A stretch of DNA of 64,000 bases from Escherichia coli (GTDB lineage: Bacteria; Pseudomonadota; Gammaproteobacteria; Enterobacterales; Enterobacteriaceae). Positions 42,085 through 48,706 of this stretch are shown here, in pieces. The DNA is taken from the NCBI RefSeq assembly GCF_022846255.1, contig NZ_AP025682.1; one strand, given 5' to 3'. Made by a program: the position numbers and the translations under genes. A model generated the notes under the pieces. It saw only the letters and a program-made list of their open reading frames with translations, was not told where the DNA came from and did no database searches. Positions within the stretch are counted from its first letter, which is position 1. Every line of letters starts with the position of its first letter.

Positions 42085-43568
42085 GCAATCACCCCCAGCA
42101 GACGCGCCACCGTGACGCGATCGGAGTAGTCCAGACGCTGATTGCCAACAATCTGGTAATCCTCATGACCTTTGCCCGCGACCAGTACCACATCATTCTC
42201 TTTAGCCTGCATAACGGCGCAAGTCACCGCTTCAGCACGGCCTTCCATCACTTTGGCATGTCCGGCATCTAACATTCCCGCCAGAATATCGTTGATGATG
42301 GCACGCGGTTCTTCGGTACGCGGGTTATCGTCCGTTACCACCGCCACGTCAGCGAACTCTTCAGCAATTGCGCCCATCAGTGGACGTTTGCCTTTATCAC
42401 GATCGCCACCACAGCCAAAGACGCACCACAGCTTGCCCGCACAGTGCAGGCGCGCCGCCTGTAAGGCTTTTTCCAGTGCATCCGGCGTATGCGCGTAATC
42501 CACCACTACCGTCGGTTTGCCTGGCGCAGTGAACACTTCCATACGTCCACAAACCGGCTGCAGGCGTGCGGCAGTTTTCAGCAGGTCAGCCAACGGATAG
42601 CCCAGCGCCAGCAGCGTCGCCAGCGCCAGCAGCAAGTTGCTGACGTTAAAAGCGCCCATCAGATGGCTTTCAATTTCGCCATCGCCCCAGCTTGAGCTAA
42701 AGCGAATCGTCGCACCGCTGTCGTGATAGTTCACTTCTGTCGCTTTCAACCAGCGTCCGTGACAGTTCGGATTGATATGATCTTCCATTGATACCGCAAC
42801 CGCGTCCGGCAGTTTTGCCAGCCAGCGGCGGCCCACTTCATCGTCGGCGTTAATAATCGCCTGACCGCAATGATGCTCAGAATAAAGCAGCCATTTCGCG
42901 GCTTCGTAGTGTTCCATATCACCATGATAATCAAGGTGATCGCGGCTTAAGTTGGTAAAGACCGACGCCGCAAATTTCAATGCCGCCACACGGTGCTGTA
43001 CCAGTCCGTGGGAGGAAACTTCCATTGCGCAAAAAGTCGCGCCCTGATCCACCAGCCCCGCCAGCTCATGCTGAACATCGACTGCCGAACCGGTGGTATT
43101 TTCTGTCGGGATCACTTTCCCCAGCAGGCCGTTACCAACGGTGCCCATTACCGCGCTGGTTTCGCCAAGCAGTTGGCTCCACTGTGCCAGCAGCTGGGTC
43201 GTCGTGGTTTTGCCGTTGGTGCCCGTTACGCCTACAAGACGTAAATTGTCAGAGGGTTCATGGTAAAAGCGGCCCGCCAGTGCAGATAAACGCTCGTTGA
43301 GCTGGCTGAGATAGATGACCGGTACGCCGTGCATTTCACGGATTTCACCGTCGGTCGCCTCATCTTTCGCCTCTGCAATAATGGCAGCCACACCTTGCGC
43401 TATCGCCTGCGGGATATATCGACGCCCGTCCGCCTGATGACCTACTACAGCTACAAAGAGATCGCCCGCCGCAGCCACACGGCTGTCGAGTGTCATCTCT
43501 CGCAGTGCTCGCGAAGGTGCGTCTGGCACCCACGGAGCAAGAAGGTCGCGCAAATTACGATCTGCCAC
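42081..43568 (-). CDS. murE: UDP-MurNAc-L-Ala-D-Glu--2,6-diaminopimelate ligase (495 aa)
   Basis: Full-length match. Confidence 0.97.
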
Positions 43569-45321
43569 CTGTCCCCTCGCCTTGATTAATCACAAATTCA
43601 TTTTTATCGCCCGTTGTCAGCGCATCCGGTTCAATGTTCATGGTACGCAATACGCCGCCCATGATGGCACCAAAGACCGGCGCGGAAACGGCGCCGCCGT
43701 AGTATTTACCCGCCTGCGGATCGTTGATAACAACAACCAGCGCGAAGCGCGGCTGACTCGCAGGCGCAACGCCTGCGGTATAAGCAATATATTTATTGAT
43801 GTAGCGACCATCCGGCCCGACCTTTTTCGCGGTACCGGTTTTAATGGCGATACGATAGCCTTTAATCGCCGCCTTCACGCCGCCGCCGCCCGGTAGCGCC
43901 ACGCTTTCCATCATATGCACCACGGTGCGAACAATGGATTCCGGGAAGACTCGTTCACCGGGAACCGGGGGGTCAACTTTGGTAATCGACAGTGGGCGAT
44001 AAATGCCGTAGCTGCCGATAGTTGCGTAGACTCGCGCTAACTGTAACGGTGTTACCATTAGCCCGTAGCCGAAAGAGAAGGTGGCCCTCTCTATGTCAGA
44101 CCACCGTTGTTTTTGAGGATATAAGCCACTGCGTTCTCCGACCAACCCCAAATTGGTCGCTTTTCCCAGTCCAAAACGTGAGTAAGTATCTACTAACGCT
44201 GAGGACGGCATCGCTAACGCCAGCTTGGAAACACCGACGTTACTCGACTTCTGTAATACCCCGGTCAGGGTTAATTCGCTGTAGCGTGCCACGTCTTTGA
44301 TTTCGTGGCCGTTAATTCGATAAGGAACGGTATTCAGTACCGAGTTTTCCCGCACTACGCCACGTTGCAACGCGGTCATCACCACCATCGGTTTAACCGT
44401 TGAACCCGGTTCAAACACGTCAGTGATGGTACGGTTACGCATCGCCTCTTTCGGCGTGCCACTCAGATTGTTTGGGTTGTATGACGGGCTGTTAGCCATC
44501 GCCAGCACTTCACCGGTGTTGACATCCACCAGCACGGCGCTACCAGATTCAGCTTTGTTAAAGGCCACCGCGTTGTTCAGTTCGCGATAAACCAGCGCCT
44601 GCAGGCGTTCATCAATACTCAGCGCCAGGTTGTGCGCCGCCTGACTGTCGGTGGAAGAGATATCTTCAATTACGCGACCATAGCGGTCTTTACGCACAAT
44701 GCGCTCACCCGGCTGCCCGGTAAGCCATTTATCGAAACTCTTCTCGACACCCTCAATCCCTTGGCTATCGACGTTAGTAAAGCCGATGAGGTGAGCGGTC
44801 ACTTCGCCGGATGGATAATAACGGCGAGATTCTTCACGCAGATGAATCCCCGGCAGTTTCAGTTTTTTGATGTACTCTGCCATGTCAGGGTTTACCTGAC
44901 GCGCCAGATAAATAAAGCGCCCTTTCGGGTTGGCGTTAATGCGGGCTGAAAGCTGATCCAGCGGAATGTTGAGTGCGTTAGCCAGCGCCTTCCAGCGATC
45001 ACCGACGCTGATACCGCCAGCGTCATGCACTTCTTTCGGGTCAGCCCAAATCGCTTTAACCGGCACGCTCACCGCTAACGGGCGACCAGAACGGTCAGTA
45101 ATCATGCCGCGGGAGGTGGAAACTTGCTGAACGCGAAGAGAACGCATGTCGCCCTCTTTCACCAGCATATCCGGGGAGATAACTTGTAACCACGCTACGC
45201 GTCCGAGCAGAAAAGCCAGCGCCAGGAGAATACAGCCGCATAACAACGCAAAACGCCAACTGATAAAGTTGGCATGTTCTTCCTGACGTTTTGGTTTCTG
45301 CGTTTTCGCCGCTGCTTTCAT
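43555..45321 (-). CDS. ftsI: peptidoglycan transpeptidase FtsI / PBP3 (588 aa)
   Basis: STVK, SSN, KTG transpeptidase motifs; full-length match. Confidence 0.97.
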
Positions 45322-45336
45322 GCGTCGCGTTTATCC

Positions 45337-45702
45337 TTATTTTTGCACTACGATATTTTCTTGTGACGGATCAACATGCTGCATTTGCAGCTTTTCCGTG
45401 GCGATCCTTTCCACCCGGCTATGGTCGCCGAGCGCATTCTCTTCAAGGATCAGGTTGCGCCATTCAATGTCTAAAGCATCTCGCTCCAGCACCAGTTGTT
45501 CGCGCTGAGCGGTCAGTAAACGGGTATGGTGCGCCGTGGTTACCACGGTCACCGCCGTCAAAATAATGCAAATGAACAGGCAGAGTGGCAGCTTCCCAAA
45601 TCGCAAAAGATCGTCACCGATAACACCAGGCAATGCATGGCGCTCGTGGCTTCCCATCGATCCTTTAACTTTGCTTAGAGCTTCTGTCACTCTGCTGATC
45701 AT
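45337..45702 (-). CDS. ftsL: cell division protein FtsL (121 aa)
   Basis: Full-length match. Confidence 0.95.
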
Positions 45703-46640
45703 GCGTTCGTCCTCTCTGCAATACGCAGAACTGAACTACGGGCACGAGGGTTCTCAGCCACCTCTTCTTCGCCCGGCATTAACTTGCCTAGTGCTCGCAG
45801 CTGACGGCCACCCAGTTTTTTGAGCTGCTCTTCAGTCATCGGTAACCCTGCCGGAACTTGCGGACCACGGCTGTTTTCACGCATAAAGCGTTTCACAATG
45901 CGGTCTTCCAGCGAGTGGAAGCTGATGATCGAAAGCCGCCCACCCGGGGCCAGCACGTTGAGCGAGCTTTTTAGCGCCTGCTCTATCTCCTCCAGTTCAC
46001 TGTTTACCCAAATGCGCACCGCCTGGAAGGTACGGGTCGCGGGATGTTTAAACTTATCTTTCACCGGCGTTGCGGCAGCAACGACTTCCGCTAGTTCTTT
46101 GGTGCGGGTCATCGGTTGTTCGCGGTTTCGCTCGACAATGGCGCGGGCAATGCGTTTGGCGAAACGCTCTTCACCATAGGTTTTCAATACCCAGGCGATA
46201 TCGGCTTCTTCTGCGGTTTGTAGCCATTCAGCGGCTGACTGCCCACGGGTCGGGTCCATACGCATGTCCAGCGGACCATCACGCATAAAGGAAAAGCCGC
46301 GTTCAGCATCATCAAGTTGCGGTGAAGAGACGCCAAGATCGAGGAGAATGCCGTCGATCTTGCCGATAAGATCGCGCTCGGCAACGTATTCGCCCAGCGC
46401 GGAGAAAGGTCCGTGGATGATGGAGAAGCGCGGATCATCAATAGTCTTCGCAACGGCGATAGCCTGCGGGTCGCGATCGATCGCCAGCAAACGCCCCTCT
46501 TCGCCAAGCTGCGAGAGGATCAGACGTGAGTGACCACCGCGACCAAAAGTCCCATCAATGTAGATGCCATCAGGACGGATATTGAGGCCATTAACGGCTT
46601 CATCCAGCAGCACCGTAGTATGTTTATAGTTTTCCATCAT
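45699..46640 (-). CDS. rsmH: 16S rRNA m4C1402 methyltransferase RsmH / MraW (313 aa)
   Basis: [22 protein letters not shown]...; track ORF over-extended by 43 codons across mraZ. Confidence 0.95.
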
Positions 46641-46641
46641 T

Positions 46642-47100
46642 TTATAGAGACAAGTCCTGCAGTCGCTCCGATAAGTCTCCAGTAGCCAACTGCTCTGCGT
46701 CGATATCTTCCTTGACCTGTTGATGCCAGGTTGTTTCATCCCACAGCTCAAACTTGTTGAACTGTCCAACCAGCATCACTTCTTTTGTCAGCCCGGCATG
46801 TTGCCGCAGTACTGGCGCGATTAACAATCGACCTGCGCCATCCATCTGACATTCGCTGGCATGACCTAACAGTAGGCGCTGCACACGGCGCTCAACCGGG
46901 TTCATGCTCGACAGACGCGATAATTTTTGCTCGATAATTTCCCATTCAGGCAGGGGGTAAAGCAGCAGGCACGGGTGATGAATGTCAATGGTGCAAACCA
47001 TTTGACCGGCAGCGTTCTCAAGCAGCTGTTCCCGATAACGGGTAGGCACTGATAAGCGCCCTTTGCTGTCGAGATTGACTAACGTTGCTCCCCGGAACAT
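46642..47100 (-). CDS. mraZ: transcriptional regulator MraZ (152 aa)
   Basis: [27 protein letters not shown]...; track ORF extended by 12 codons. Confidence 0.95.
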
Positions 47101-47119
47101 GCCAGCCTCACCCCTTATT

Positions 47120-47144
47120 CCCACTTTGCCCCACAATTTCCCAC
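47120..47144 (-). promoter_or_regulatory. MraZ operator: three GTGGG direct repeats at 10-bp spacing in the mraZ 5' region
   Basis: Plus strand shows cccac at 47120-47124, 47130-47134 and 47140-47144 (GTGGG on the mraZ-coding strand), 20-45 nt upstream of the mraZ ATG. Confidence 0.6.
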
Positions 47145-47701
47145 TGAAAGGAGTTTACGGAGCGGAGGAAAAGCTTGTCAAGCCAGTCACAAGGCATACC
47201 GAGGTAAAAAACCCGATGTTTACGGCTAATATCAGCGTTGTTTATTTTACGTCCAACGTGCGAAGCAAATTAACGTTATGAATAGCTGTAAGAAAAAATC
47301 CCTCATCGTCATCACCGTTTTAAAATGACTCACTATTTTCCACAGCAAATATAAAGTGTCAGTTTGCGACGCGAGCGGCATTTTAGGACATATCTTCCCC
47401 GGTTAACAGTCCCTGTTGCGTCTGTGTGGCGCTTGATGCCAGCGGGTTTGCGCAAAAGCAAAGAAAAGTGTTTGTTAAATCGGCAATTCATCTCTGCATG
47501 TAACAAAATAATGCAAAAACGCGCTATCGATATCACTTAATTATTGTGAATTTCAGCTGGTGAGGTAATTAACGGGCAGGTTTAAAAGCATTTATCAATA
47601 ATAGCCAGGAATAGTCTTATTTACTTTAAGGATATTGATGTCCATTCCCGTACTCAACGCGCCAGAGAGAAATTCACCTGGCGCGTATTTTTGTTCGCGG
47701 C

Positions 47702-48706
47702 TTAGCTACGGCTGAGCACGCCGCGGCGATAGAGATTACGTTTAATGCGCGTTAAACCAGGTTTTGGCTTACGCGGTTCGTCCAGGCTTGCCAGGACAAT
47801 CTCCAGCACACGCTCTGCGACATCGCGGTGACGTTGAGCCACTGCCAGCACCGGGCACTGTAAGAAGTCGAGCAGTTCGTTATCGCCAAAGGTGGCAATT
47901 GCCAGGTCAGAAGGCAGTTTGCCGTCACGACGTAGCGTGACATCCATCACCCCTTGCAACAACGCAAACGACGTTGTGAACAGTGCCTGCGGCATCGGAT
48001 GCGTTTCCAGCCATTTTTCGAATAACTGGGCAGCCGCCTCCCGCTCATAGCTGTTGGCATAAAGGAAATGCACTTCGCGAGGATCATCTTTCCAGGCAGT
48101 ACGGAAACCTTGTTCACGCAGGAAGCTGACAGAAAGCTCCGGCAGCGCGCCAAGATAAAGTACCGTCTCGGCGGGAAACTTACGTAACTCTTCCGCCAGC
48201 ATTTCGGCATCATCCTGATCGGCACCAACCACGCTGGTGAAGTGTTCACGATCGAGGGCGCGGTCCAGCGCGACAATCGGGAACGGGTCGTTAGCCCAGC
48301 GTTGATAAAAAGGATGCTCAGGTGGCAACGACGTCGAAACAATAATGGCATCAACCTGACGCTGTAAAAGATGCTCGATACAACGCATTTCGTTGTCGGG
48401 CTGATCTTCCGAGCAGGCAATCAGCAGTTGATAACCCCTTTGCCGCGCCTGGCGTTCAAGATAGTTAGCGATGCGGGTATAGCTGGTGTTCTCCAGATCG
48501 GGGATCACAAGACCAATAGAACGTGTGCGTCCAGCACGAAGCCCAGCTGCCACGGCGTTCGGGTGGTAATTGTGCTCACGCACCACAGCCATGACTTTTT
48601 CAACGGTTTTGTCGCTCACACGGTATTGCTTCGCTTTGCCGTTAATAACATAGCTTGCAGTGGTCCGCGACACTCCCGCCAGCCGAGCGATTTCATCCAG
48701 TTTCAC
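47702..48706 (-). CDS. cra: catabolite repressor/activator Cra / FruR (334 aa)
   Basis: LacI-family [28 protein letters not shown]... Confidence 0.96.

Follow-up and report, generated by a model that had tools for sequence, protein, structure and literature searches.

Three GTGG(G) direct repeats at the mraZ promoter of Escherichia coli as the probable autoregulatory operator of MraZ

Introduction

What do three closely spaced G-rich repeats do immediately upstream of mraZ, at the start of the dcw cluster (for division and the cell wall) of Escherichia coli? The original prediction for this site, made within a 64-kb stretch of E. coli DNA (hereafter the window, meaning the whole stretch that was analysed), was that the repeats form the autoregulatory operator of MraZ, and this is supported here by their position, period, core and conservation, as well as by an intact cognate regulator. 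We consider it very probable that the array is the autoregulatory MraZ operator at Pmra, the first promoter of the dcw cluster, and as such it is an ordinary feature that is already known. The site governs the first promoter of an operon that supplies FtsL, FtsI and Mur enzymes, and so helps to set the capacity for cell division. In the long-term E. coli evolution experiment, early and strongly beneficial mutations cluster in this upstream region (PMC4301190).

Two parts of the account given below come from the literature, namely the binding and repression by MraZ in E. coli and the box-by-box geometry of binding in M. genitalium. Where it cites Eraso et al., PMC7761207 describes E. coli MraZ as a repressor of Pmra that binds to repeats located downstream of the -10 box; the repression covers the genes from mraZ to murC (PMC7761207). 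Binding by purified MraZ, and a need for the site in the repression of Pmra, are thereby reported for the K-12 operator, whose sequence is that of the window. A full-text literature search for MraZ together with ‘three direct repeats’ gave no match. In the region from Pmra to mraZ, Eraso et al. (2014) reportedly described a set of three direct TGGGN repeats that are separated by 5 nt, which we take to be the array at 47120-47144. What the present analysis adds is the strand of the array, its overlap with the transcription start site (TSS), a refined conserved unit, evidence of invariance at the level of both population and family, and one natural deletion variant.

Results

Sequence and position of the repeat array

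Within the 64 kb of the window, the pattern GTGGG-N5-GTGGG-N5-GTGGG has a single match, GTGGGAAATTGTGGGGCAAAGTGGG, on the minus strand (47120-47144). The three pentamers (box 1 at 47144-47140, box 2 at 47134-47130 and box 3 at 47124-47120) follow an exact 10-bp period and are all intact, just as had been described. The strand went unmentioned in the original prediction, and we supply it here: GTGGG is read on the minus strand, the one that encodes mraZ, and CCCAC on the plus strand. On the minus strand, mraZ begins with the ATG at 47100; the boxes lie 20-44 nt upstream of this codon, in good agreement with the predicted 20-45 nt. Read along the minus strand, the order of elements is TTGACA, AGCTTTTCCTCCGCTCCG, TAAACT, CCTTTCA, GTGGG, AAATT, GTGGG, GCAAA, GTGGG, AATAAGGGGTGAGGCTGGC and ATG.

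None of 100 dinucleotide-preserving shuffles contained the array, even when one mismatch was permitted, and simple arithmetic (15 specified bases, 128,000 positions) gives an expectation of approximately 1e-4 matches. Relaxing the pattern to three units of GTG[GT]-N6 or of TGGG-N6 returned the same site alone in the window, and elsewhere we see just three unrelated GTGG-N6-GTGG pairs. A search for additional in-phase boxes one period (10 bp) beyond either end of the array, before box 1 and after box 3, found no GTG core. The usual MraZ site is described as three GTG(G/T) boxes with 6-nt spacers (PMC12957436); the window agrees with the expectation of three or more such direct repeats, its boxes starting at 47144, 47134 and 47124.

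The boxes overlap the transcription start of Pmra

A consensus promoter scan identified a strong sigma-70 promoter on the minus strand, comprising a -35 hexamer TTGACA (47176-47181), an 18-nt spacer and a -10 hexamer TAAACT (47152-47157), with 10 of 12 matches to consensus. Box 1 starts 7 nt past the -10 hexamer. The mraZ start codon of strain MG1655 (NC_000913.3) is at 89634, and a Cappable-seq supplement lists a TSS at U00096.2 89590 on the plus strand, with a score of 27.2 that is the highest in its neighbourhood (PMC4782308). By alignment, MG1655 position 89590 corresponds to 47144 in the window, which is the first G of box 1; this implies a 44-nt leader, and it is also the position that would be expected 7 nt after TAAACT.

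In older literature the 5′ UTR of mraZ1p is given as 38 nt (PMC5089854), and a leader of that length would set +1 in the gap between the first two boxes, at 47138. The TSS has two candidate positions, 47144 and 47138, which differ by a 6-nt shift of the boxes relative to +1, and 47144 is the one that fits TAAACT. This ambiguity still leaves the boxes within the polymerase footprint: with either start, they span about -7 to +25, inside the region that RNA polymerase must occupy for initiation. The array thus lies at a promoter directly upstream of mraZ, after the -10 box and overlapping the TSS, as is expected of an MraZ operator. A scan for terminator-like sites near the operator found none.

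The cognate regulator and its genomic context

The adjacent mraZ coding sequence (46642-47100, minus strand), defined by its open reading frame and by the annotation of identical E. coli records, encodes the cognate repressor as an intact protein of 152 aa. The Pfam family PF02381 is matched twice, and the NCBIfam equivalog TIGR00242 is matched with 225 bits. Two DXXXR motifs are found in the protein, DSKGR at residues 11-15 and DGAGR at residues 87-91, so that a cognate MraZ with both motifs is encoded next to the array. When E. coli MraZ is aligned to the PDB chains of M. genitalium MraZ, LDSKGR pairs with LDNKNR and DGAGR with DSANR; these chains are DNA-bound, and the alignment indicates that the contact residues are conserved in E. 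coli MraZ, as K13, R15 and R91. Downstream of mraZ, the genes rsmH, ftsL and ftsI (43555-46640, minus strand) follow in the same transcription unit, according to their open reading frames and the annotation of an identical record.

A region of 1,071 bases, covering mraZ and the spacer upstream of it, matches several complete E. coli chromosomes at 100% identity, and a search of 5,426 E. coli genomes located it in 5,423. The annotated identical record gives the gene order as ilvN, a leader peptide, cra, a spacer of ~600 bp, mraZ, rsmH, ftsL and ftsI, all of which are on the minus strand in the window. The Pmra (mraZ1p) operator of E. coli K-12 (Eraso et al. 2014, J Bacteriol 196:2053) has the same context of cra, spacer and mraZ-rsmH-ftsL-ftsI. 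From the -35 hexamer to the ATG, the K-12 sequence is base-for-base identical to that of the window save for one spacer base, and the operator itself is fully identical. The single difference is at 47164, between the -35 and -10 hexamers, where K-12, like many other E. coli, has A and the window has C, the latter being the state of other Enterobacteriaceae. As a side observation, three of the 5,423 matches to the region come from records that carry a plasmid label, and no match was obtained for three of the E. coli genomes.

Conservation across the Enterobacteriaceae

An alignment across the Enterobacteriaceae had been proposed as a check on the predicted operator. A scan of one genome per species gave 80 loci from this family, with MraZ proteins 88-96% identical, and hence 81 sequences together with the window. 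The closest Escherichia among the 81 are E. albertii, E. whittamii and two further isolates, and other closest Escherichia species are absent from the loci. In every one of the 81 species, GTGG-N6-GTGG-N6-GTGG is retained at the same place, and with it the 10-bp centre-to-centre period that leaves six nucleotides between the 4-nt cores.

The alignment shows a near-invariant block that runs from the -35 hexamer through box 3, with variable sequence on both flanks. Invariant columns make up 100% of the -35 hexamer, 100% of the -10 hexamer, 80% of box 1, 80% of box 2 and 100% of the GTGG of box 3, compared to 3% of 33 four-fold degenerate mraZ sites and 2% of the 49 columns upstream of the -35 hexamer. 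The boxes are thus conserved well beyond neutral expectation (80-100% vs 3% and 2%, across 81 species). The 18-nt spacer of Pmra (47158-47175, minus strand) is itself 72% invariant in the 81 species, far above what a promoter spacer usually needs, and it contains no in-phase GTG box.

The individual boxes differ in how much of the pentamer is retained. Box 1, which is promoter-proximal and holds the Cappable-seq start, reads GTGGG in 80 of the 81 species, with four of its five columns invariant. Box 2 likewise reads GTGGG in 80 of 81; an invariant TTT precedes it, and the invariant string of the alignment at this box is TTTGTGGG. Box 3, the mraZ-proximal one, is preceded by an invariant AAA, and its GTGG core (47124-47121) is found in all 81 species. 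Its fifth base (47120) is variable, being T in 54 species, C in 15, A in 11 and G in the window alone. GTGGG as the repeat unit, as first proposed, therefore holds for boxes 1 and 2 and gives way at box 3 to a GTGG core: the pentamer is not exactly the recognition unit, which is better written as GTGG(G), and the conserved unit of the array is GTGGG-N5-GTGGG-N5-GTGG, with the triple GTGGG as its E. coli form. Given the composition of the species sample, the restriction of the fifth G to E. coli is a statement that holds for this sample.

Between the operator and the start codon lies the Shine-Dalgarno region of mraZ (GGGGTGAGG, 47106-47114, minus strand), which was read from the sequence and has a mean major-allele frequency of 0.92 across the 81 species. 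Box 3 and the Shine-Dalgarno region are set further apart, by an insertion of ~10 nt (8-10 nt), in Buttiauxella, Cedecea, Siccibacter and related genera (loci L054, L056, L060, L063, L064, L066-L068, L071, L073, L074, L077, L078, L080 and L081). The insertion lengthens the leader by approximately one helical turn and leaves the boxes untouched.

Variation within E. coli

Searches of E. coli genomes with an 88-nt query extending from the promoter to the ATG gave 3,508 exact matches and 1,914 matches with one to four mismatches; in every variant that was sampled, the promoter spacer has the A of K-12. With a 40-nt operator query, 4,842 of 5,423 genomes matched exactly and 581 had one mismatch. 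One of these 581 was inspected, and the change was C to T at 47146, two bases before box 1 and so outside the boxes.

One genome of the 5,423 has a deletion that reaches into box 1. Strain WS3294A, from human stool (NZ_CP035819.1 3576785-3576867, locus L083), has a 5-bp deletion of CAGTG, corresponding to 47142-47146 in the window, which takes out the GTG of box 1 along with the Cappable-seq start and leaves mraZ intact. The deletion may be genuine, and then a regulatory variant, or it may stem from an error of assembly.

Comparison with MraZ sites in other bacteria

The array resembles the known MraZ sites of several bacteria, and the literature records such sites as conserved from phylum to phylum. 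The MraZ-binding repeats (MBRs) of B. subtilis are three GTGG[A/T]G motifs placed 4 nt apart, which form the sole such triple in that genome and are needed for repression (bioRxiv 10.1101/2022.02.09.479790). They share with the array in the window the number of direct repeats, the GTGG core, the 10-bp period and the location upstream of mraZ, but the unit is GTGGWG there and GTGGG or GTGGN here, and the promoter context differs. In Burkholderia cenocepacia (PMC7761207), the MraZ site is also downstream of the -10 box, overlaps the TSS and consists of GTG repeats with a 10-bp period (7-nt repeats and 3-nt spacers), whereas it has four repeats and a 100-nt leader, compared to three repeats and a leader of about 40 nt here.

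A further comparison is with M. genitalium, where the site is a repeated AAAGTG(T/G)-N3 (PMC12957436). The two sites have in common the GTG(G/T) core, the 10-bp period and the location of a TSS within box 1, and the AAA flank of the M. genitalium site is present here before box 3. The cryoEM study (2026) shows that one MraZ subunit binds each box in the major groove via K13, R15 and R86, that the MraZ ring opens and its neighbouring subunits bind cooperatively, and that the start site is within box 1 (PMC12957436). The three contact residues align with K13, R15 and R91 of E. coli MraZ. The M. genitalium site differs in having four boxes, compared to three here, and a core that is mostly GTGT rather than GTGG. 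In M. gallisepticum, overexpression of MraZ has been reported as activating and not repressing (PMC12957436).

Alternative explanations for the conserved repeats

The G-rich character of the array brings to mind a sense-strand G-quadruplex (G4), formed by the mRNA leader, the non-template DNA or both, that controls expression instead of or alongside MraZ binding; we judge this very improbable. The minus strand at 47142-47111 (GGGAAATTGTGGGGCAAAGTGGGAATAAGGGG) does contain a canonical motif of four runs of at least three G with loops of 1-7 nt, arranged as G3-N7-G4-N6-G3-N5-G4, which overlaps the operator and the Shine-Dalgarno region; the window holds just three motifs of this kind in all. For S. 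aureus, a 2025 study reports a ligand-stabilised G4 that lowers expression, located in the G-rich promoter region of mraZ (PMC11796246), and both sites have G-rich repeats at the mraZ promoter. However, the motif in the window, known here from sequence alone, exists because box 3 ends in G (47120) in E. coli, and it hinges on a base that is unique to E. coli among the 81 species. In the other 80 the third tract is GG, and the motif as such is not conserved. The T that is invariant in every GTGG and the AAA/TTT flanks are relevant to protein recognition, not to G-tetrads, and a ViennaRNA calculation with G-quadruplex energies, which is a model of RNA only, left the minimum-free-energy fold of the leader unchanged and without a G4. 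We find it similarly improbable that the E. coli-specific G at 47120, by completing a three-tetrad G4 motif at +3 to +34 of both the sense strand and the mRNA leader, provides a lineage-specific structural control or a competition with MraZ binding and ribosome loading where the dcw cluster begins.

Less probable still, in our estimation, is that the block owes its conservation to an RNA element in the 5′ leader of mraZ, one that affects structure, stability or translation, with the repeats being incidental. A start at 47144, as seen by Cappable-seq, means that all three boxes are transcribed, and the leader is well conserved down to the Shine-Dalgarno sequence. Against this, an Rfam search of 46900-47800 at E<=1 gave no match, the leader RNA has a weak fold (-11.3 kcal/mol, z = -0.79) that is no better than those of shuffles, and conservation tracks the 10-bp direct-repeat pattern and extends upstream into the untranscribed promoter, all of which leaves an RNA leader element unsupported. 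The insertions found between box 3 and the Shine-Dalgarno region in several genera also count against a fixed leader fold. The least credible reading is that the repeats are a functionless product of chance or of the composition of a G-rich spacer. GTGG and GTGGG are indeed common words on the strand of the array, with 359 and 64 occurrences in the whole window, yet the full array is missing from every shuffle, its boxes are invariant across 81 species where neighbouring neutral sites are saturated, and it is identical to the K-12 sequence that has been studied experimentally. Taken together, the shuffles and the 81-species conservation data exclude a chance origin for the array.

A model for autoregulation by MraZ

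With the array taken as the autoregulatory MraZ operator, its three GTGG(G) boxes, one helical turn apart and reaching from the transcription start to about +25, suggest how repression might work. Each box would be read in the major groove by the β-sheet ‘cradle’ of one MraZ subunit, with K13, R15 and R91 (E. coli numbering) as the probable contacts, and three adjacent subunits of an opened MraZ ring would bind cooperatively along one face of the DNA. This model supposes, by analogy, that E. coli MraZ shares the geometry described for M. genitalium. As E. coli MraZ is reported to be a dodecamer, whereas M. genitalium MraZ is an octamer or nonamer (PMC12957436), the transfer of that geometry is something that we infer. 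MraZ seated on +1 to +25 would then stop RNA polymerase from initiating at Pmra or from clearing it, so that repression would likely operate through steric occlusion. The predicted outcome is less transcription of mraZ, rsmH, ftsL, ftsI and the downstream genes, and thereby a negative feedback on mraZ itself.

Other features of the cra-mraZ spacer

The spacer of ~600 bp between cra and mraZ holds no annotated gene and no Rfam match. In addition to the start assigned to Pmra, two more Cappable-seq starts fall within it on the same strand, at MG1655 89360 and 89237, which correspond to 47374 and 47497 in the window. The consensus scan also picked out a weak promoter-like site nearby, at 47362-47335, which coincides with neither of these two starts. 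Finally, a G+C-rich hairpin is located at 47659-47692, just downstream of the cra stop codon, with arms GCGCCAG and CTGGCGC around a 12-nt loop; with a loop longer than 8 nt, it was passed over by the terminator scan. It has an A-run on the cra-sense side and a T-run after it on the opposite strand, and so it looks terminator-like, better in the direction antisense to cra.
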